Shown in pieces: positions 14,093-63,491 of a stretch of 64,000 nt of DNA. The stretch lies in IMG/VR virus record IMGVR_UViG_3300031787_000064, positions 15,662 through 79,661 of that record. One strand, given 5' to 3'. The notes beneath the pieces are model-generated. The model worked only from the letters and a program-made list of their open reading frames with translations, did not search any database and was not told where the DNA came from. The DNA is from a virus. Within the stretch, counting starts at the first letter, position 1. Each line of letters begins with the position of its first letter. Position numbers and translations under genes: made by a program.

Positions 14093-16006
14093 TTATTTTT
14101 TAAATGTTTCGTTATAATATAGTTTACCGTTACTGCACTCTGATATGTCCTTTGATTTGTCTGGATCAGACTGTCCATCTTTATAACCATCGTTATAGGT
14201 TTGGATTAGTTGATTCTCCTCCATTTGTTTGGCTTGTTCAAGTATATCAGTAGATACATAACCAATCTTTGTTGTCATTTTAGCAAACCATTCTAATGCT
14301 GTTTGTTTTTCCATTTTACTACCAAATTTTTTAATAAAGTTTTCGTCTGTCTTTAGTTTCTTATTGAACTCATTTTGAGTATATGTGTCATAGTAGTACT
14401 GCACATGATCTTCTGTTTGTTTAAGCCATGTATGAATAAAGTCCCAGTCCCACTGAGTATCTCTTGTGAATTGAATGTAGTCTAGGTACTCTTTTGTGAA
14501 TCTTGGTTTTGCCATAAGTTTAAGATAGTTCTAAAAGATCAACAATAGGGCAAGATACAAAACCAGTACTAACCTCTCTTTTCACAGGTCCTACGATATT
14601 GTTATCCATCAAGAATCCAAGAACTCCTTCGTTCTCTGAATAGTTCTTGATAATAACTTCTCTATTAGTGAGATCAACATCTGGAATGTTTACCGTTGCA
14701 GTTAACACAGGTTCACCTGTCTCTGCATCAGATAATTCAATTGCTGTTCTACCATTAGAGTATTTCAAAAACTCTATTTGTACGTCATAAGCTCCGTACT
14801 CACCTACAAACTTGTAAACTCTACTTTTTGTCATAACTATTTAATTTAATTTTTTACCAACTTGATTGATAGTAATAATCTGCCTCTTCGTCCCAATCTT
14901 GAAGGATACTCTCTAATGCTTGAATAGTATTATCGATTTGACGAAAATAGTATTCATCGTACTCTTCACTACCAAAGAAACATCCATTAGAAACAGGAAG
15001 GAAACAAGGCGCGTCGATCGGCTCTTCTTTTACCTGATAACATAAGTCTAGTAACTCTGTAAGATTTTCTTTAGTTACATAATATTGACTACAATTATCT
15101 TTACCATCTTGAACGTTGTCAACAAACCAACCATGAATTTGATTGGCCTTTCTCCAATACGCAGCTTGCTCTTCAATGTAGGTAATTTTGTTTAGGTCAA
15201 TACTAGTACAAGGTTGACCTCCTCTAGTTATTACTACATCGTACTGTTTTTCAGCAGGCGTATAATCCCATTTTCTTACATACGTTCTCTTACTCAAATA
15301 CATGTCTAATCCCATAACTTTTATTTTTTAGTGTTTAACATATTCTCTTTTGCCATATTCATTAACCTAGTTTCACGTGTACCATACATCCAATGAAACA
15401 ATAGATCGTTAACTAACTCAGCATAAAACTTTGGATCGTTCTTAATGTCTTCAAGAGTAGGCTCGAATGCATCTTCTACTTGTTGACTACGATCAACGTA
15501 ATTAAAGTCTAGATAAGGATTGTACCTTTTGTTTGGTGCAAATACAGAAGTTGTTGTCATAACTTTTATTCTTTTACTAGTTTGATAATCTTGTTCCCTA
15601 CATATTTAGGCGTATTCATTTCATTGAACTTGGTCTTGGCATATACCATGATACCGGCGTCTTCTTTGATCTTTGACCAATCGACCCCTCTTTCCTTTAG
15701 ATAAATGTCTAGTGCACGAAACGCTGAATCGATATCGTTGTGTGCCTCTTCAAACATAAAGACCTGAGAATAGTCATACTCCTCTATTAGCTTAGCTCCA
15801 TTTTCAACACATAAATTTCCAAAGCAATCAGTATAGACACTACAACCATCTTCTATATTGACTAATGCTAGAGTCAATTCTGAAGGATCAAATGAAGTAT
15901 TACTAAAATTGTCTTTTAGTTCATCGAACTTAACTAGTGCTCTACCAACACTTGTAAAATAATCTTGTGTGAAATAATCTGGGGTGTTGAAATAAACTAG
16001 ATACAT
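14093..16006 (-). other. Five hypothetical CDSs (14093-14515 with a C-terminal KQTA..W module, 14520-14834, 14854-15315 of MGLDMYL type, 15321-15560, 15566-16006)
   Basis: ORF track; several preceded by an A-rich AAGTT-ATG start context. Confidence 0.6.
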
Positions 16007-16027: not shown

Positions 16028-16099
16028 AAGTCAGAGCAGGATTCGAACCTACATCTCTCACCTACTATAGTGAGGCGTTACCATTTACGCTACCTGACT
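16028..16099 (-). ncRNA. tRNA-like element with a non-canonical anticodon arm
   Basis: Acceptor AGTCAGG/TCTGACT, D-arm GCGT-AAATGGTA-ACGC, T-arm GTAGG-TTCGAAT-CCTGC; anticodon stem CTCAC/GTGAG closes 8-nt TATAGTAG. Confidence 0.75.
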
Positions 16100-22354: not shown

Positions 22355-22942
22355 TCACTTCTTGTACCTGCACCTGTCAAAATGCCATTGTTTCATGGCG
22401 CTTCCTTTTCCTTTCTTTAAACAGTGCGGACACGTATACACGGGACGAATATCACCAGCATATTTAGGACATTTATCAAAATGATATTTTTTTGCATTAT
22501 TAGATGCTGTTTTAATTCCACAATGAGGACATTCAATATGGCTGTATACTTTTCCTATGCTAGCTTCTTTTATTTTATTTTTATGTTCTTCAGACTTAGG
22601 TTTTCTCATTCTCATTTTTGTTTCCTCAGTCTTAGGTTTTTTCATTCTACTCTTATGGTATTCTGATAAAGGCTTGCCTGTTTTAAATTCACTAATCTTT
22701 TTATTTATATGAGCTCTTTCTTCTGGTGTCATGTTTAATCTTTGACTTATTAAGTGGGCTGCGCAATATTCACCTTTATCATAATGAATTTGATAATGCT
22801 CTTTTAATGGAAGTGCAATAAGATTAAATATATTATTGTTATTTCTATCACCATCAATGTGATGGATATCATAAGTCACTCCATTTTCATCAACTGGTAT
22901 CGGTCCGTAATAATCAGACCATATTTTTCTATAATCAGCCAT
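22355..22942 (-). CDS. Free-standing HNH homing endonuclease (HNH + NUMOD3-like repeats + two CPHC zinc modules)
   Basis: IHHIDGDRNNN...NL...EH..IH; probable true start MADYRK at 22942, since the upstream in-frame extension is the RNA leader. Confidence 0.85.
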   Translation of the reverse strand: MADYRKIWSDYYGPIPVDENGVTYDIHHIDGDRNNNNIFNLIALPLKEHYQIHYDKGEYCAAHLISQRLNMTPEERAHINKKISEFKTGKPLSEYHKSRMKKPKTEETKMRMRKPKSEEHKNKIKEASIGKVYSHIECPHCGIKTASNNAKKYHFDKCPKYAGDIRPVYTCPHCLKKGKGSAMKQWHFDRCRYKK

Positions 22943-23055
22943 AAAATAAAAATGGACCCAGAGGAAGTAAAGGTCCCGGAATGACCGATACTCCATGAGT
23001 CCAATAAATTATTGTAGATAGTTGATTCCGGCAACTTTCTATCTATAATAAATAT
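22943..23055 (-). ncRNA. Two-hairpin kissing-loop leader RNA, copy 1
   Basis: Loops CCGGAAT (23025-31) and ATTCCGG (22976-82) are exact complements; architecture repeated at 61235-61346. Confidence 0.75.
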
Positions 23056-23056
23056 C

Positions 23057-23806
23057 TTACTTTTTAAAATCTATAAATTCATTACCATCTTCTTGACTCA
23101 AATGATCTTCTTTAGACTTAAATAATACATCTCCAGATCCATCTAATCCGAGGTTTTTAAGATGTGTATAATAAAAATCATCGAGTTGGAATAACTCTTG
23201 TGCATCTTCTTTTATCTCTGGTGCATCTATAGGCATTGCTTCTAGACGTTGTAGCATTTTGTTTGAGAACGGATCTTCTATGAACAAGAAGTAACAATTG
23301 TAGCAAAGCCATCTTAGGTTCTCTATTCTCCAGTCACTACGTTTACCGTTAACAAAGTTAAGTAGTAAAGGTGCTTTCATATCTGTCAATCTCTTCTCAC
23401 TGAACTTACATGTTGCACATTGGTAACCTAGTCTACCATCTTTCATTAGAAGTTCTTTCAACCTTATAATCTTCTTGGTATTGATAGGTTGATTCTCTAC
23501 TAACATGTCGTCTAGATTCTTCTTCCACTGTCCACCTACCCAGTTCTTAGGCATACCTTTGCCTGCTTGATTCTTGTGTAGTTCGAACAAGCTTTTGCCT
23601 GTAGCTTCGTCTATATGTTTCTTTGCATACTTCTTGTATGTAACATCTGTAATGCCAAGCCATCTAGCAGCTTCTTTATTGCTTCTAGTATTAGCCATGG
23701 CTTCTCTAATTCTTTCTGGAGATAATTGCAGGCCTCGGTTCCACCAGGTTTCTGGTCTAACGCCTCTAGCCATATTTTCTTTCGTGAAGTTATATTGCTT
23801 GCTCAT
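23057..23806 (-). CDS. HTH plus degenerate HNH/zinc-finger protein
   Basis: SNKEAARWLGIT HTH; CATC...NG...DWRIENLRWLCYNC lacks the catalytic His residues. Confidence 0.65.
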   Translation of the reverse strand: MSKQYNFTKENMARGVRPETWWNRGLQLSPERIREAMANTRSNKEAARWLGITDVTYKKYAKKHIDEATGKSLFELHKNQAGKGMPKNWVGGQWKKNLDDMLVENQPINTKKIIRLKELLMKDGRLGYQCATCKFSEKRLTDMKAPLLLNFVNGKRSDWRIENLRWLCYNCYFLFIEDPFSNKMLQRLEAMPIDAPEIKEDAQELFQLDDFYYTHLKNLGLDGSGDVLFKSKEDHLSQEDGNEFIDFKK

Positions 23807-24566: not shown

Positions 24567-25226
24567 TTACTTGAATCTAGGGTTATGCAGTCTCATAAAC
24601 TCTGCATGCTCTGGTCTTTTCTTGCCATAGAATGGATGGTTTTCTCCTCTCATCTTTTCTTTAAAGCTTTCTGATTGTGTGTTTCTAACTCCTGTATATG
24701 TAGGACAGTTGTCGAAGTGCCATCTATGCATAACATTCTCATTTCCTTTTTTACCACAGTGAGGACACTCAGCATCTCTCTTCTTCTTTCCTTTCTGAGC
24801 TATGCTAAGTTTAAGTTTAGTTTCCTCTGACTTGACTTTCCCTAAACCAGATTTGTTACCTTTAGAAGTAATAGTCAGCTTTTGTCTATGCTCTAACGTC
24901 TTCTTTCTACCAAACCAAGGATGGGCTTCTTTACTTCCGAATCCACCATCTCCGATTTCCTCTTTCATGTTAGCCCAGTTATCTGACTTAACTACATTGA
25001 ATAAGTTAGAATAATACAATCCTAACTCTTTTACTTCATCTTCATTAATTGTTTCGTGAAGTATCCAAGTCTGTAAGTCTGAGTTCTTGAGGTTGTGCAA
25101 GTTAAGGTGTCTTTTCCATCTTAGCCCACTACCTTCATACTTATAAGGATCTTGAACTGTCTTACCTAGATACAATAACCCTTTAGGACTCTGCTTAACG
25201 TATATGTAAGTCTTCTTATTCTCCAC
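24567..25226 (-). CDS. Seg-like GIY-YIG homing endonuclease with NUMOD3-like repeats and a CPHC module
   Basis: YIYVK...YLGKT...Y.GSG..W; GDGG; HPWFG / SEETKLKLS repeats. Confidence 0.85.
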   Translation of the reverse strand: MENKKTYIYVKQSPKGLLYLGKTVQDPYKYEGSGLRWKRHLNLHNLKNSDLQTWILHETINEDEVKELGLYYSNLFNVVKSDNWANMKEEIGDGGFGSKEAHPWFGRKKTLEHRQKLTITSKGNKSGLGKVKSEETKLKLSIAQKGKKKRDAECPHCGKKGNENVMHRWHFDNCPTYTGVRNTQSESFKEKMRGENHPFYGKKRPEHAEFMRLHNPRFK

Positions 25227-46881: not shown

Positions 46882-46963
46882 TGCCCCAAGAGAGACTCGA
46901 ACTCTCACATCTTTCGATACTAGATCCTAAGTCTAGCGCGGCTGCCAATTACGCCATCGGGGC
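46882..46963 (-). tRNA. tRNA-Leu(TAG)
   Basis: Cloverleaf, CTAGA-CTTAGGA-TCTAG anticodon arm, long variable arm; no encoded CCA. Confidence 0.95.
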
Positions 46964-47080
46964 AGGTGTTAGTCTTTTGATCTACCATAGAGATCTACAG
47001 GTACTCCGAAGAGCGCTAACACCCCTGCTACAGATAATTTGAATATAACTATTTACGTTAATAAAGAACTATTGATCTTA

Positions 47081-47356
47081 TTAGTGTCCATGAATAAATA
47101 AGCTGATCTCGATCCCTAATAAAGATCCTGCAACTCCACCCATTGCATAACCAAACCACAAGTGCCAACTATCATCTGACTTGGCGATCTTCTTAATAAC
47201 AAAGAAGCTAAATGTTGCTAATAGAAAATCTGATGTAGCAGACCAAAAGTAATTTGCTTGCGCAACTGCCCGATAGTTAACAACCATCATACCATAGTTT
47301 AGAGTTTGTATTCCAAACATAATAGCTGCGTCACCAATATCTTTCCAGGTTTTCAT
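47081..47356 (-). CDS. Small membrane protein
   Basis: Three hydrophobic segments, GY..GG..G..LG. Confidence 0.6.
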   Translation of the reverse strand: MKTWKDIGDAAIMFGIQTLNYGMMVVNYRAVAQANYFWSATSDFLLATFSFFVIKKIAKSDDSWHLWFGYAMGGVAGSLLGIEISLFIHGH

Positions 47357-47365
47357 AACTTTGTT

Positions 47366-47824
47366 TTAAATTGATAAAATGTCTTGGTGTCTTTTTATGA
47401 TGTCTCTAAGTTTTTTAGCATAGCCTCTTGACTCAGAGTATTTTCTATCGATAAAGTTTATATATTGTGATCTAGTCATTTTTCTCTTTCTCATCATGAA
47501 CTCTTGATAGAGTGCATAGTCTTGAACAGAATGCATCCATGTTTCATAGACAGCAAATCCACGTTCATTCTTTCTGATGGCAACAGTCTCTCTTACATTA
47601 GGCATCATCATACCAAATAAGTTGTTTGCTTCTTTACAGGTCTGGCTTTTGAAGTGACCTGTTTCAAGAATGGCTTGAGCAAATGCAATCTCTGGGTACA
47701 TGATGTCCATTGCTTTAATGGTCAACCATAGATTTTCTTTAGTTAATAGACCAAGATCATTCTTAGCTTTTGTGTGAGGCATAAAGCTCGATAACACCAA
47801 CAATAAAATGATTAGCTTTTTCAT
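47366..47824 (-). CDS. Secreted glucosaminidase/muramidase (GH73-like)
   Basis: Signal peptide; AQAILETG, NNLFGM, Y.....Y. Confidence 0.8.
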   Translation of the reverse strand: MKKLIILLLVLSSFMPHTKAKNDLGLLTKENLWLTIKAMDIMYPEIAFAQAILETGHFKSQTCKEANNLFGMMMPNVRETVAIRKNERGFAVYETWMHSVQDYALYQEFMMRKRKMTRSQYINFIDRKYSESRGYAKKLRDIIKRHQDILSI

Positions 47825-47839
47825 GTTTATTATTTTTAG

Positions 47840-47910
47840 ATGTCCCTCTAGGATTCGAACCTAGACTAAGTGGACCAAAACCACTTGTGCTACCGTTACA
47901 CCAAAGGACA
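47840..47910 (-). tRNA. tRNA-Gln(TTG)
   Basis: AGTGG-TTTTGGT-CCACT anticodon arm, GGTTCGAATCC. Confidence 0.95.
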
Positions 47911-47968
47911 ATGTAAGCCGACTTTCGTCGACCTACGTGGCGTCAATGCTTATCGCACCGTCTTCAGG

Positions 47969-48040
47969 TACTCGGTACGAGAATCGAACTCGTATCACCA
48001 CCGTGAAAGGGTGGTGTCCTAACCGTTAGACGAACCGAGC
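47969..48040 (-). tRNA. tRNA-Glu(TTC)
   Basis: CCACC-CTTTCAC-GGTGG anticodon arm. Confidence 0.95.
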
Positions 48041-48046
48041 AAGGAG

Positions 48047-48123
48047 TCGGGTTGGCTGGATTCGAACCAGCGAGTTCTCCACATCCCAAATGTGGCGGGG
48101 TAACCGGACTCCCCAACAACCCG
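48047..48123 (-). tRNA. tRNA-Pro(TGG)
   Basis: CCACA-TTTGGGA-TGTGG anticodon arm, 5' CGG. Confidence 0.95.
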
Positions 48124-49229: not shown

Positions 49230-49535
49230 TTATTGTATTTTACCAAGTTGTTGTAATACTGCGATCTTAGATGCCAATGCAGATGAAGTGCTATCTGACT
49301 TACGTAGTTGCTCAGACATTTGTGATAGTTTTGTTTCTAACTGCTCTATCTTGGCGTTCTGCCTATCTTGAATGGCAGTGTTAGACATTTTGATATCTAC
49401 ATAAAGATATCCTACTGCCACAATACAAATAAACATAAGACCTTTTACAGGATCTTTAGAGAACTCCTTAAAGGTAATAGGAGGCTTTATAGTGCCTGCT
49501 ACTGATTCTGCTACGGATGCAGCTTTTCTTGCCAT
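49230..49535 (-). CDS. TM plus coiled-coil protein
   Basis: Probable start MARKAAS; single TM then heptads. Confidence 0.55.
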   Translation of the reverse strand: MARKAASVAESVAGTIKPPITFKEFSKDPVKGLMFICIVAVGYLYVDIKMSNTAIQDRQNAKIEQLETKLSQMSEQLRKSDSTSSALASKIAVLQQLGKIQ

Positions 49536-49632: not shown

Positions 49633-50067
49633 TGGTGGAGGAGACGGGACTCGAACCCGTGTATCCATAAGGAACAATAACACCAGCGTATCACATGCTT
49701 AGTACTGAATTGTAAGAGACGTGGGTAGTAGCTTTTATCTCTTCTTTGCTCCATCAGTCTTGCGACCAACTCTGTACTGTAATTTGGGGACGTCGGTTTT
49801 GGTCGACGTCGCTTCCACCACCTAATTTTTTAGCGGAAACTAGGAAAACCAGAGTGCTGTTCTGTTGCAAGGCTATCAGCTGCCCCTGCGAGGATTAGGC
49901 TGCTAGAGCGAACTCCTCATTGAAGATAGAAGCTAAAATAGCTTCACCTTCAGCAATACGTTCTTGACGTGTTGCATTTATTTGTTGATTGTTTGTTTAA
50001 AGACGACACGACCAACCGTCTGCATGTAGTGGTACCTTCACATTACGGAGCAATACCTGGCTCCCCC
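49633..50067 (-). ncRNA. ssrA: tmRNA
   Basis: Acceptor GGGGGAG/CTCCTCC-ACCA with G3-U70, T-arm ACGGG-TTCGAGT-CCCGT, tag ORF 49895-49975 after ATAAAT ending FALAA*. Confidence 0.95.
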
Positions 50068-59656: not shown

Positions 59657-60295
59657 TTATTTAAGCATGTTGTAATGTCTTGGATAGATATGTAGATTAG
59701 TAATGAACCAATGCATATCACCTACTTCATAGCCAGTCTTTTCAGATACTAGCTCCATTAGTTTAGCAAAAGTGTATTGATCATTACAGAATCCGTAAAC
59801 TAGGTCAATTGATCTAGCAAATACAGTTAGTTGTAACTTATCATCTTGAATATAGAAGTTAAGTACATCATTACAAGGTGTGTCGTATTTGTATCGATCT
59901 AACTCGTCTAGATTATAATGTACTACAATAGCTCTACGTGTTTCTTTGTTAGTCTTAAGATCTTCAATGATACGGTTTAGTTGATCGTTGTAATTCCAGA
60001 AGTAGCCATAGTTAGAGTTTACTTCTGTTGTACCTGGTACCATCATTTGTTTCCAGATCTTGGCACGTTCAGATATTTCTGAAGCATCACGATCACCTTT
60101 GAGATACCAATCCCATTCGTAGTCAGCGTAGTCTTTGTTGAACTTACGCTCAGGTGTTGTTACAACTTTATCTTTAGGATTATCGATAGTAAAAGATACA
60201 TTGAACATTGCTTTTGTGCCAGCAAAGTCTTGACCATTTGCCATGATATCACGAAACAAAATCTCGAATGCGTCGGTTGCGTTATTGTACCTCAT
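59657..60295 (-). CDS. Thymidylate-synthase-fold enzyme, dCMP hydroxymethylase-like
   Basis: SNYG, TRRA, DTPC, RSIDLVYGFCND (Asp at the position where ThyA has Asn), NLHIY. Confidence 0.8.
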   Translation of the reverse strand: MRYNNATDAFEILFRDIMANGQDFAGTKAMFNVSFTIDNPKDKVVTTPERKFNKDYADYEWDWYLKGDRDASEISERAKIWKQMMVPGTTEVNSNYGYFWNYNDQLNRIIEDLKTNKETRRAIVVHYNLDELDRYKYDTPCNDVLNFYIQDDKLQLTVFARSIDLVYGFCNDQYTFAKLMELVSEKTGYEVGDMHWFITNLHIYPRHYNMLK

Positions 60296-60695
60296 ACTTC
60301 TCTACTTGTATAAATTGTTTAAGAAAGTTAATACCTTCAGTGCTTCTGTATTCATTCAAATATACAACACGTTTGATTCCGGATTGCAGTATAAGTTTAG
60401 AGCAATCTAAACATGGGCTAAGTGTTAAGTACAAAGTAGACCCATCTACAGAGTTGCCTGTTTTGGCAGCTTTTAAGATTGCTCCCATTTCCGCATGAAC
60501 AACATATGGTAAAGTAACATTGTCTTTTTCACAACAATTATCCATTCCTGGAGGTGTGCCATTGTATGACATGCTTATAATATTACCGTCTTTAACTAAT
60601 ATTGCACCTACTTTAGATCTATTACATTTAGACATAGTAGATATCTCTTTAGCTATGTTTAAAAAAATAGTATCTAGTTGTTTTTGGCTTGGCAT
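60282..60695 (-). CDS. dCMP deaminase
   Basis: YNGTP.G..N, HAE..AI, SPC..C. Confidence 0.9.
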   Translation of the reverse strand: MPSQKQLDTIFLNIAKEISTMSKCNRSKVGAILVKDGNIISMSYNGTPPGMDNCCEKDNVTLPYVVHAEMGAILKAAKTGNSVDGSTLYLTLSPCLDCSKLILQSGIKRVVYLNEYRSTEGINFLKQFIQVEKYEVQ

Positions 60696-61234
60696 ACTCT
60701 TCCTTTTTTATATCCTTCTGGTATTTCTTTACCTTCTTTGATTAATATGTTGTTGACTCCGTTTGTATACCAATGCTTGGGGTGGTACTTTCTTGGTAAT
60801 AAGCTAATTCTTTTGAGATGTCCTGATTCTACATTGTTCTTTCCTTGCATTGCTCCACCTTTTATACAAACTTCTCTTCTAAGTTCTTCATTAAAAAAAC
60901 AGTTTAGTTTGTTTTCTCTACATACTTTAGCTGCAATTTGTCCAGCCAGTTTGTTATCAGACATGGATTGTATTTTTTTCATGAAGCCAGAATCTGCATT
61001 TATTTTCCCTTGTCTTTTTCCATTCATTGATCTTATTTCATTAATCAACTCTTCTTTTGATATTTGCCCAGATAAACATCTCCAAGCAATAAAGTCTTCT
61101 TGCATACCATATTTTTCCCATAATAGTCTATGCTCTTCTGCATGTTCTTCTAATGTTACTAGTTTTATATTTGAGGGATCATCAGATCCTCCTGCGTGTT
61201 TAGGTACTATATGGTGTTTGTACAATTTATTCAT
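60674..61234 (-). CDS. Free-standing HNH homing endonuclease
   Basis: HHIVPKHAGGSDDPSN....EEH...H; C-terminal WYTNG...GY.KGR module; probable true start MNKLYK at 61234. Confidence 0.85.
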   Translation of the reverse strand: MNKLYKHHIVPKHAGGSDDPSNIKLVTLEEHAEEHRLLWEKYGMQEDFIAWRCLSGQISKEELINEIRSMNGKRQGKINADSGFMKKIQSMSDNKLAGQIAAKVCRENKLNCFFNEELRREVCIKGGAMQGKNNVESGHLKRISLLPRKYHPKHWYTNGVNNILIKEGKEIPEGYKKGRVCQAKNN

Positions 61235-61346
61235 AAAAATAAAAGGTCCCAAAAAACAGAGGAGCTACTACCTTCCTAAGTCTTAGGGGACCAATAAGTT
61301 TATTATAGATTGTTGGTAGTAGCAACATTCTATCTATAATAAATAT
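61235..61346 (-). ncRNA. Two-hairpin kissing-loop leader RNA, copy 2
   Basis: Loops CTACTAC (61316-22) and GTAGTAG (61265-71) are exact complements. Confidence 0.75.
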
Positions 61347-61353
61347 CTACAAC

Positions 61354-61776
61354 TTACAATCCTGTTGAACCAAAACCGCCCTTTCTCTCAGTATTGTTCT
61401 CTATATTATCAACCTCTTCTACGTCAAAGTAGCATACTGGAATAAGAACAAATTGTATCAACTTTTGACCTGTTGCTACTGTTTGATCTTTGTCAGATAT
61501 GTTGATAACATGGAGATGTATCTCCAACCTATAGTCTTCATCAACTACACATGCACCAACTTGTAGACCTTGCTTAGTAGCAACGCCTGATTTGTTGAAT
61601 GCAATTAGTGCATAGCCTCTTGGCACTTGTGCTTTGATTCCTGAAGGAATTAATACTGATTGGCCTGGTTTTAGGACAACGGTTTCAAAGTCTTCAGGCA
61701 CATAGAAGTCAATACCTGCTGATACAGAGGTACCTCTACTTGGTGTTTTTACGTTTCGTAACTTTTGTACTTTCAT
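61354..61776 (-). CDS. dut: Trimeric dUTPase
   Basis: SAGIDF, KSG, VVDEDY, Q, RKGGFGSTG. Confidence 0.9.
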   Translation of the reverse strand: MKVQKLRNVKTPSRGTSVSAGIDFYVPEDFETVVLKPGQSVLIPSGIKAQVPRGYALIAFNKSGVATKQGLQVGACVVDEDYRLEIHLHVINISDKDQTVATGQKLIQFVLIPVCYFDVEEVDNIENNTERKGGFGSTGL

Positions 61777-62041
61777 CGTGAATAGCATTTTGATAGTCAT
61801 TTAATGAAGCAATGTAAGCAACACAATCTAAGAGGTTGTCCTCTTTGTGATTGTAAGCTTGTCTCGACAACTTCAGTGCGATCATGCAGTTGTACATGTC
61901 CACAGCAGTTAAGTCTTTTCTTGATAACAATGATGCAATCTTGGCTGCCTCTTGCATACCTTCTTGCATTGGCCCATATTGACGGGCTTTCTCTTCGGAT
62001 CTCTTGTAGATGATCTCGTTAGCTTGTTCTAGTATATTCAT
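61736..62041 (-). CDS. Small nucleotide-modification-associated alpha-helical protein (DUF6378-like)
   Basis: IL.QA..II...R..QYG......M.ALKLSR...K.DN..D..AY. Confidence 0.65.
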   Translation of the reverse strand: MNILEQANEIIYKRSEEKARQYGPMQEGMQEAAKIASLLSRKDLTAVDMYNCMIALKLSRQAYNHKEDNLLDCVAYIASLNDYQNAIHDESTKVTKRKNTK

Positions 62042-62565
62042 AACTTTGTTTTATATATAACAAAACCAGAGAAGTCAGATCCTCCAACCTCAACGTCTTT
62101 TAGCTTCCAATTTGGTCCTAATTGAGATAGTCTTTTTACAACTATCGTTTTATACAATGCGCTCTTTTGTGGATCTGTTTTAGTCAATAAATTCTGAGGA
62201 TCTTTATTAGCTGCAAAGAATACAAGTGCTTCTGTTTTTGGATTGTCTTTCACATACTGTAACACTATATCAGTTACTGTTTTAAGTATTTTGATTAGTT
62301 CTTTGTATGTCGCCTTTTTATATTGTGATTGTTCTCCTTCTATTGTATATTCTACATTAATGGTATTAGGCCTTTTAGTAGGTATATTTAAAAGCTGGAA
62401 CTCTCCAAAAGGTATTACAGATAATTCTACAGTTACTTGCCAACCTTGATCTGTAGTAAATGTATTGTTAGAATACGAGTAAGCTTCTACACCTTCTAGA
62501 TCTCCAACTTCGTTGAGTATATTCAACAAACTAGTTCTCATCTCTAGTAGGCTAAGTTTATTCAT
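62038..62565 (-). CDS. Probable virion-internal protein, paralog of 6597..7076
   Basis: SLLNILNEVGD leader; ATATTTATC motif at 62570-78. Confidence 0.6.
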   Translation of the reverse strand: MNKLSLLEMRTSLLNILNEVGDLEGVEAYSYSNNTFTTDQGWQVTVELSVIPFGEFQLLNIPTKRPNTINVEYTIEGEQSQYKKATYKELIKILKTVTDIVLQYVKDNPKTEALVFFAANKDPQNLLTKTDPQKSALYKTIVVKRLSQLGPNWKLKDVEVGGSDFSGFVIYKTKL

Positions 62566-62603
62566 ATTGGATAAATATAAAACAGATTGGTGAAATGATA
62601 AAA

Positions 62604-63491
62604 TCATTCTCCTAAGTACCTAGTGATATCACTCTTATCACCCCACTCTCGTTGAGAGTCTACGTCACTTGGCTTGATTGTTGGCTTAGGCATGTTTCTT
62701 GCAACATTCCAGAACCAATCTCCTAAGTTGCCGTAACGTTTCATATAGTCCCAACCTTTTGCGTCATAGGTCTTGATACAATCAAATGGAGTATCGATGT
62801 CTGCTTCTTTTAGAAACTCTTTATGGTATGTATAGAATTTAGCTCTACCAAGTTCACCTGGTTGTACATTTCTTGCAACAGCAACTGCGTTAAAGTTTAC
62901 ATGAGGAAGTGCTATCTGTAAAGTTCTTGATAGAACACCTGTAGAAAATACACTCCACATTGTTTCTACACGCTTGTCTTTAAACGCTTCATGAAATATC
63001 TTGACTCCTCCTGCTACTACTTGTTCATGCTTAAGACCAAAAGGTAGATATTTTGCGCCTATCTTTTGAGCAAACTCTTTTGCCCAACCGTTAATAGTTG
63101 GCATTGCAGGTGTTTTTAAGAAGATAGGTGTTGCTCCATCTTCAATTACACGTAGTTGATGTTCAGATGCTTCTTTAGATGCCGGCATAAACAACACTAA
63201 CTTCTTGTTATACTTCTTAGCAAGGTAAGTTAATGAATAAGGAGCATAGCCTGTTCTAGGTGCAACATAAACTAATGTGTCTTCTTTGACTTGACTGATC
63301 ATAAAGTCACCCATCTTAGCTTTAGTCCCGTATTGAAACTCGCCGTCGTCTACAATAGTAAACCCTTCTACTTGTTTTAACTTAAAGTCAAAGTCTGGTG
63401 TGTAGTCCTTTGTCATTTCAAGATAGTAGTTTAAGTCTCTACCATCTGACATGTCTAGATTAGACTGATCTATCGCTTTGTTTATAAACAT
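62604..63491 (-). CDS. PLP-dependent enzyme, fold type II (TrpB/ACC-deaminase-like)
   Basis: DD....GTKAK, G.A..SL, YLPFGL, STGVL, YDAK, FWNVA. Confidence 0.7.
   Translation of the reverse strand: MFINKAIDQSNLDMSDGRDLNYYLEMTKDYTPDFDFKLKQVEGFTIVDDGEFQYGTKAKMGDFMISQVKEDTLVYVAPRTGYAPYSLTYLAKKYNKKLVLFMPASKEASEHQLRVIEDGATPIFLKTPAMPTINGWAKEFAQKIGAKYLPFGLKHEQVVAGGVKIFHEAFKDKRVETMWSVFSTGVLSRTLQIALPHVNFNAVAVARNVQPGELGRAKFYTYHKEFLKEADIDTPFDCIKTYDAKGWDYMKRYGNLGDWFWNVARNMPKPTIKPSDVDSQREWGDKSDITRYLGE

Follow-up and report, generated by a model that had tools for sequence, protein, structure and literature searches.

In the T-even phages, the late promoter of homing endonuclease genes is embedded in a hairpin that only early or middle read-through RNA can form, and weak terminators and RNase sites lower the levels of their transcripts (PMC2988022). 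Homing endonuclease genes need an expression that is harmless to the carrier phage, and in T4 each gene has its own solution to this task. RNA elements with mutually pairing loops are known from other settings, e.g., the kissing complex of ColE1 RNA I and RNA II, in which 7-nt loops are complementary over all seven bases and two different antisense transcripts pair into a full duplex. The pRNA of phi29 holds two mutually complementary loops in one RNA, which covary between phages and pair over 4 nt between molecules, giving a ring on the portal. In the lambda PR'-6S RNA-tR' unit, which works with Q, a structured RNA and a terminator lie within about 100 to 200 nt downstream of a late promoter, and the put RNA of HK022 consists of two adjacent hairpins acting in cis on polymerase.

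The leader family described here, which stands directly before homing endonuclease genes of uncultured phages, is confirmed as a real RNA of about 115 bases with two hairpins that pair through their 7-nt loops. Two copies of it lie in a stretch of 64,000 nucleotides (positions 15,662 to 79,661 of IMG/VR record IMGVR_UViG_3300031787_000064), which is called the window throughout.

Two leader copies and the genes around them

The window belongs to an IMG/VR phage contig of 79.7 kb that is estimated to be about 47% complete and contains two leader copies only. In lake metagenomes the phage is widespread across many studies, and its closest cultured relative is Flavobacterium phage immuto (57% identity of DNA polymerase A; T4-like gp20 and gp23). 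Also encoded on the contig are five tRNAs and a full-length tmRNA (Rfam, 62.5 bits), with window sites at 49633-50067, 46882-48123, and 16028-16099, all on the minus strand.

Copy 2 occupies window positions 61347 to 61232 on the minus strand, between dut and the dCMP deaminase gene (dcd). From 5' to 3' it consists of a ATATTTAT box, which begins 8 nt past the dUTPase stop, hairpin 1, a linker, hairpin 2, a U tract, and the ATG of an HNH gene. The minus-strand description of this copy in the earlier note agrees exactly with the sequence. The features are as follows.

61354-61800, minus strand: dUTPase gene, upstream flank of the insertion
61346-61339, minus strand: ATATTTAT box, late-promoter-like, opening the 5' arm of hairpin 1
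61343-61299, minus strand: hairpin 1, 17 bp, bulged (MFE fold)
61343-61332 with 61310-61299, minus strand: outer helix of hairpin 1, 12 bp, AU-rich
61331-61328, minus strand: AGAA bulge of hairpin 1, 4 nt
61327-61323 with 61315-61311, minus strand: inner helix of hairpin 1, 5 bp
61322-61316, minus strand: loop 1, CUACUAC, 7 nt
61298-61293, minus strand: linker CUUAUU, 6 nt, single-stranded and conserved (alignments), followed by GG as the first pair of hairpin 2
61292-61245, minus strand: hairpin 2, 48 nt, irregular (MFE fold and covariation)
61271-61265, minus strand: loop 2, GUAGUAG, 7 nt, exact complement of loop 1
61244-61235, minus strand: U tract UUUUAUUUUU, directly 3' of hairpin 2 and directly 5' of the AUG
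61234, minus strand: ATG of the HNH gene behind copy 2
60674-61234, minus strand: HNH homing endonuclease gene behind copy 2, 186 aa (Pfam HNH, E = 8.6e-4)
60282-60695, minus strand: dCMP deaminase gene, downstream flank

Both hairpins are part of the MFE fold of copy 2, which has a z of -3.7 versus shuffles. Hairpin 2 is built from a G+C-rich base (GGUCCC/GGGACC), two internal loops, and an apical 5-bp stem. The two loops lie 44 nt apart on the same strand, and their complementarity ends at the loop edges. Counted along the leader, the box takes up positions 2 to 9 and the 5' arm of hairpin 1 positions 5 to 16; the box-bearing hairpin lies about 65 nt from the AUG, and hairpin 2 ends 11 to 12 nt upstream of it. 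An SD-like AGGAAG in hairpin 2 was dismissed as a signal, as it is unconserved in the family and irrelevant in an SD-blind host.

The HNH match of the gene behind copy 2 is weak (19.9 bits versus a Pfam cut-off of 21.4), and homologues at the same site are 80% identical in locus L119 and 62% identical in L148 and L150. Its stop lies about 20 nt inside the dCMP deaminase frame, so that its 3' end overlaps the deaminase start, and the cassette provides the start and the first five or so codons of this gene, which is followed by the thymidylate synthase gene.

The window contains the 5' 20-mer of the leader at exactly two sites, 61347 and 23056, versus 0.06 occurrences expected by chance, and the second site marks copy 1.

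23056-22940, minus strand: leader copy 1, built as copy 2, with loops CCGGAAU and AUUCCGG
23055-23048, minus strand: box of copy 1
23031-23025, minus strand: loop 1 of copy 1, CCGGAAU
23002-22954, minus strand: hairpin 2 of copy 1, with loop 2 (AUUCCGG) at 22982-22976
22942, minus strand: ATG downstream of copy 1
22355-22942, minus strand: HNH_3 homing endonuclease gene behind copy 1 (Pfam PF13392, E = 2.2e-9)
24567-25226, minus strand: GIY-YIG/NUMOD3 endonuclease gene, with neither leader nor box

Further points of the earlier note agree with this comparison. The copies share one architecture and differ in their loops, between which cross-pairing would be possible at only two of seven positions; the two HNH proteins are of different kinds, with no mutual similarity at E 1e-3; and the GIY-YIG gene at 24.6 kb, which starts within the stop region of the upstream frame, has no leader. 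Unlike this gene, its homologues in L007, L247, L260, and L150 carry one. An in-frame ATG at 22996 within copy 1 was rejected as a coding start, as it is not conserved in relatives. Just upstream of copy 1 lies a 249-aa frame (23057-23806, minus strand) with weak PHROG HNH matches (E = 8.6e-11) and no Pfam match; together with the GIY-YIG and HNH_3 genes it makes the region from 22.3 to 25.2 kb an endonuclease-rich island.

A covarying RNA family tied to homing endonuclease genes

A first covariance model was made from copy 2 and one relative and a second from 16 matches, and both were used on related contigs; extra copies were obtained by exact-pattern scans of the IMG/VR and JGI/ENA metagenomes. 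After deduplication, about 66 distinct leaders from uncultured phage contigs were retained, with 22 different loop pairs, all of which are Watson-Crick reverse complements at seven of seven positions. Pattern matches without complementary loops also lacked hairpin 2 and the U tract and were therefore not counted as leaders.

Among 37 distinct sequences, 95.4% of the cells at paired positions can pair, versus 75% after shuffling and 38 to 46% in slid registers, and none of 500 shuffles equalled the observed value; changes on both sides were found in 30 of the 40 pairs. The helix between the loops, in the same 37 sequences, is 98.8% paired with double changes at six of its seven positions, a result that no shuffle or slid register came close to, and position 6 of loop 1 is invariably A. 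Since this helix had been left out of the covariance model, its pairing is an independent test, and the earlier proposal of a genuine structured RNA in which two loops pair and covary stands. The inner helix of hairpin 1 covaries at all five pairs, and all three helix segments of hairpin 2 covary too; the outer helix of hairpin 1, nearly invariant in sequence, shows a few double changes, whereas all other helices covary freely. Stem cells contain 42 G-U versus 9 A-C combinations, so that it is the sense-strand RNA that folds; this speaks against a DNA structure or an antisense RNA.

The family is uncatalogued. None of the 4227 models of Rfam 15, including ribozymes, HEARO, and phage motifs, matched the leader at the gathering threshold; the best permissive match reached 22.7 bits versus a threshold of 49 (E = 0.88), and there was no match to any ribozyme family in Rfam. 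Searches of the literature for kissing loops with homing endonucleases and for Flavobacterium phages with homing endonucleases retrieved no description of it. No true copy was present in 185,579 genomes of prokaryote species, where three pattern matches were rejected as chance AT-rich palindromes of at most 20 bits. In 50,697 phage records neither megablast nor blastn matched the region or either leader, and the three large relatives G001 to G003 are free of leaders, as is immuto, whose sole weak match consists of the box upstream of a lectin-like gene. New loop codes, GGGGAAU and CUGGUAA among them, were observed on leaders of the Tara Oceans (TARA) contigs L297, L298, L315, and L339 and of L328, a contig labelled as marine metagenome. 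Since these are true leaders, the family is not confined to lakes.

Wherever the frame downstream of a leader is readable, it is a homing endonuclease gene, whose ATG lies 108 to 120 nt from the 5' end of the leader. These genes fall into three HNH types, i.e., the HHIxPK type of copy 2, HNH_3, and the I-HmuI/NUMOD type, and four GIY-YIG types. Leaders were located at more than 20 different intergenic sites, including those after DNA polymerase A, GroEL, and dut. The dut-dcd junction was compared across 80 related loci. In about 45 of them the dut stop directly abuts the dcd start (TAATATG), and none of these empty sites has a leader, nor do a dozen loci in which the junction holds one to four unrelated small frames. 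The leader is present in the loci with an HNH homologue (L119, L148 to L155) or a GIY-YIG gene (L130) at this junction, and in L006 and L169 the cassette sits one gene further, between dcd and thyA.

The junction is a hotspot, and relatives contain at least six different sets of small non-endonuclease frames at this position (L120, L122, L126, L128, L131, L132, L159, L162, L175, L179, and L180), including membrane-like proteins of 57 aa and a 102-aa protein with a signal peptide. A remnant was encountered in L140 (449-685), where an intact leader precedes a stub of 40 aa, the first 33 of which match the 253-aa HNH protein of L011. The leader thus remains for at least some time after the loss of its nuclease gene.

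The earlier note had regarded the RNA and the HNH gene as a joint mobile cassette. The first half of this idea holds, since leader and endonuclease gene come and go together, as the leader-free empty sites at the dut-dcd junction document; the exclusive partnership with HNH does not, since GIY-YIG genes of four subfamilies follow the leader as well. Identical leaders stand before an HNH gene in L119 and before a GIY-YIG gene in L130. A single genome (ERZ869921 NODE-8, 169 kb) even contains two leaders of 115 nt that are 100% identical, one before an I-HmuI-like HNH gene (L282:55) and its twin before a GIY-YIG gene (L308:8822), which points to a recent gene conversion or to the replacement of the reading frame behind a resident leader. 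The CCGGAAU leader was seen before HNH_3, I-HmuI-like HNH, and GIY-YIG genes, the CUACUAC leader before four nuclease types, and the site after DNA polymerase is occupied by three loop types. Leader type, nuclease family, and insertion site are freely reshuffled, and the identical leaders before different nucleases make the leader a portable module and not an HNH-specific partner.

The same 169-kb contig, with its two identical leaders, is the counter-example to the further suggestion that orthogonal loops prevent cross-talk between copies. Nor does orthogonality emerge as a rule from eight multi-copy genomes, in which 1 of 29 within-genome pairs shared its loops versus 2.9 expected, a deficit that is not significant (P[<=1] = 0.23). 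Some endonuclease genes of leader-bearing genomes have a box and a short plain leader, and others have neither. Examples of the former are three GIY-YIG genes of G004 (C1, at about 10240, 24640, and 32140; L266 to L268), which exhibit a ATATTTAT(T/A)ATAA box and a leader of about 15 to 18 nt that is free of the leader hairpins. The structured RNA is therefore an optional insert between the promoter box and the start codon.

Putative promoter box, U tract, and possible roles of the leader

The ATATTTAT box is most likely a late promoter of the phage. In the window it occurs 17 times on the coding strand versus 4 times on the opposite strand, mostly 4 to 34 nt upstream of start codons, among them those of endolysin and spanin-like genes. 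In immuto it is located directly before the genes for terminase, tail fibre, structural, tail sheath, tail completion, and baseplate hub proteins; since a reversed-pattern control is equally frequent on the forward strand of immuto, the argument rests on position and not on count. A sigma-70 scan was uninformative for this host type. The near invariance of the outer helix of hairpin 1 is consistent with a 5' arm held constant by its promoter function and a 3' arm that must follow it in order to pair. Transcription starting 5 to 8 nt past the box would remove most of the 5' arm and, because the box sits inside this arm, the full 12-bp outer helix is expected only on read-through RNA.

Two other boxes of the window deserve mention. 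At 49615-49561 (minus strand), a small hairpin comes after a ATATTTAT box that is flanked by the 3' end of the tmRNA and a canonical terminator; a spanin/holin-like frame (49233-49535) begins about 20 nt further on, which results in the order box, hairpin, terminator, and gene, here with no endonuclease. At 62565-62607 (minus strand), a box at 62578 stands 5 nt upstream of an in-frame ATG at 62565, and the 189-aa frame annotated in this region may start there, giving a protein of 175 aa and perhaps a leaderless mRNA.

In nearly all copies, the base helix of hairpin 2, GGUCC(C)/(G)GGACC, is succeeded by U4AU5 or AU5AU4, i.e., a G+C-rich stem with a U tract directly after it as in intrinsic terminators, and the tract resembles the U tails of the canonical terminators of the window. 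A simple terminator scan, which is uninformative for this host type, did not call hairpin 2 with its 48 nt and two internal loops. Positions -1 to -4 of the leaders are 96% U, and A makes up 4% at -3, versus 42% A at -3 and 50 to 65% A at -5 to -13 in ordinary genes of the window. In Flavobacterium and other Bacteroidetes, the SD sequence is unused and initiation is tuned by structure and by an A at -3 (PMC6847099). By its composition, the U tract resembles a terminator tail and should be an unfavourable start context in a host from the Bacteroidota. No SD sequence precedes the AUG. The predicted unpairedness of the start region, calculated from secondary structure alone, is alike in read-through (0.42) and box-started RNA (0.46), which is compatible both with a switch and with its absence. 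In four metatranscriptome runs, contigs covered only dut, one of them extending to position 61283 in hairpin 2, and none covered the HNH gene.

The carriers are immuto-like phages (Flavobacterium-type, with a T4-like capsid), and the leader is found strictly between the ATATTTAT box and the endonuclease start codon. Its most likely role, with chances that we judge to be evenly balanced, is that of a portable cis-acting RNA that throttles free-standing homing endonuclease genes in these phages and confines them to weak, late expression. The fold, the dock between the loops, the association with endonuclease genes, and the modularity are observed; promoter function and effects on termination and translation are inferred. 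The loop-loop dock would tie hairpin 1 to hairpin 2 and create a compact structure beside the AUG. On read-through RNA this docked structure could hinder ribosome loading, and a part of the transcripts would terminate at the U tract, which takes the place that the A-rich start context has in ordinary genes. The nuclease would then be made weakly and mainly from its own late promoter. Several points stand against such a throttle. The accessibility of the start site is predicted to be equal in long and box-started RNA; the latter retains a hairpin 1 of 9 bp, so that the dock may persist on late transcripts; and the terminator scan does not call hairpin 2. A strong stop at the U tract would, moreover, starve the early gene for dCMP deaminase, which lacks a separate box and whose start lies within the end of the HNH gene. 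Finally, the intramolecular closure of a 7-bp loop-loop helix across a linker of 6 nt depends on the positions of the hinges.

It is possible, if on the whole unlikely, that the leader is instead a unit of promoter and terminator, either a small RNA gene of about 100 nt or an attenuator, with the nuclease expressed only by read-through and possibly with the help of a late antitermination factor of the phage. The G+C-rich base of hairpin 2 with its U5AU4 tail looks like the clear terminators of the window, the U tract is unlike the A-rich start context of ordinary genes, a second set of box, hairpin, and terminator precedes a lysis-like gene at 49615-49561, and mobE and segF of T4 bear terminators as well. 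However, hairpin 2 is long and irregular and was missed by the terminator scan, a strong stop would deprive dCMP deaminase and thyA of the transcription through the cassette on which both rely, and the outer helix of hairpin 1 would be left with no role beyond that of containing the promoter.

A bolder version of the throttle, which we consider doubtful, sees in the leader a protein-free portable timing switch that is open to any selfish nuclease gene. The dock would report the presence of hairpin 1, and with it of an upstream-started transcript, to a distant terminator and start-site hairpin, and the fast-evolving 7-nt code would keep the copies self-acting. If true, cis-regulatory RNAs would gain a new class, one operating via a tertiary contact and not via alternative secondary structures.

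The irregular hairpins with internal loops between genes, the conserved AU-rich single-stranded linker, and the precedent of processed endonuclease transcripts in T-even phages would suit a target of RNase III or RNase E that separates the endonuclease mRNA from the upstream message and sets its stability, on the model of the intergenic RNase III sites of T7 or of segB, segG, and mobE with their RNase E sites. Such a function in processing or insulation seems improbable to us, as it would leave the loop-loop pair and the promoter box within the stem unexplained.

Slightly less plausible still is an intermolecular arrangement, in which loop 1 pairs with loop 2 of another copy and dimers or rings are formed as by the pRNA of phi29. 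One RNA does hold two fully complementary, covarying loops, the intramolecular closure of two hairpins of about 17 bp each that are joined by just 6 nt would be sterically hard, and the diversity of the loops would confer self-only recognition. But the leader is always attached to a start codon and has no tie to packaging genes or genome ends, one genome contains two identical leaders, and a bulge and internal loops, which are conserved and lie 5 bp away from the respective 7-nt loop, are possible hinges for an intramolecular dock.

Very improbable is a DNA-level element whose inverted repeats serve as a cruciform or an attC-like single-strand site for swapping endonuclease frames: the reshuffling of leaders and frames exactly at the ATG and the identical leaders before different frames would agree with it, but the ratio of G-U to A-C (42 to 9) fits sense-strand RNA only, no DNA precedent for loop-loop pairing is known, no recombinase travels with the leader, and homologous exchange between leaders of 115 nt suffices for the swaps.

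Comparison with described systems

Whatever its exact function, the leader is a compact, covariation-proven fold whose 22 loop codes provide a natural collection of kissing-loop pairs that differ from one another. Its curation as a new family would be possible and useful for the annotation of endonuclease cassettes in metagenomes. It also offers an entry point to the control of late transcription and SD-less translation in phages of Bacteroidota.

With ColE1 the leader shares two fully complementary 7-nt loops (22 of 22 loop pairs), but here both loops reside on the same strand. With the pRNA of phi29 it has the complementarity of two loops within one RNA in common, but pRNA is not an mRNA leader. 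The reading as a promoter-terminator unit would resemble lambda PR'-6S RNA-tR' with Q; no similarity in sequence or model to this unit or to the put RNA of HK022 was detected, and the leader is tied to endonuclease genes and not to a whole late operon. The terminators of T4 mobE and segF have in common with it a stem and a U tract at the start of an endonuclease gene, which are thought to lower the transcript level, but they are ordinary short hairpins inside the coding region, whereas the leader has its terminator-like hairpin of 48 nt upstream of the AUG and in a dock with another hairpin.

The closest parallel is provided by the T-even endonuclease genes (I-TevI, I-TevII, I-TevIII, segB, and Aeh1 mobE). 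In both cases the element is situated directly upstream of the endonuclease frame, which in T-even phages is free-standing or intron-borne, a late-promoter motif, in the leader a putative one, is part of the 5' arm of a hairpin, and the expected effect is a weak and late expression of the nuclease. The leader belongs to an SD-free host type and its start codon is unpaired in the predicted folds, whereas in T-even phages one hairpin sequesters the Shine-Dalgarno site and the structure of each gene is unrelated to the others. In contrast to this collection of individual structures, the leader is a single two-hairpin family with a covarying 7-bp loop-loop pair, an exchangeable RNA module that a whole phage group shares among at least seven nuclease subfamilies.
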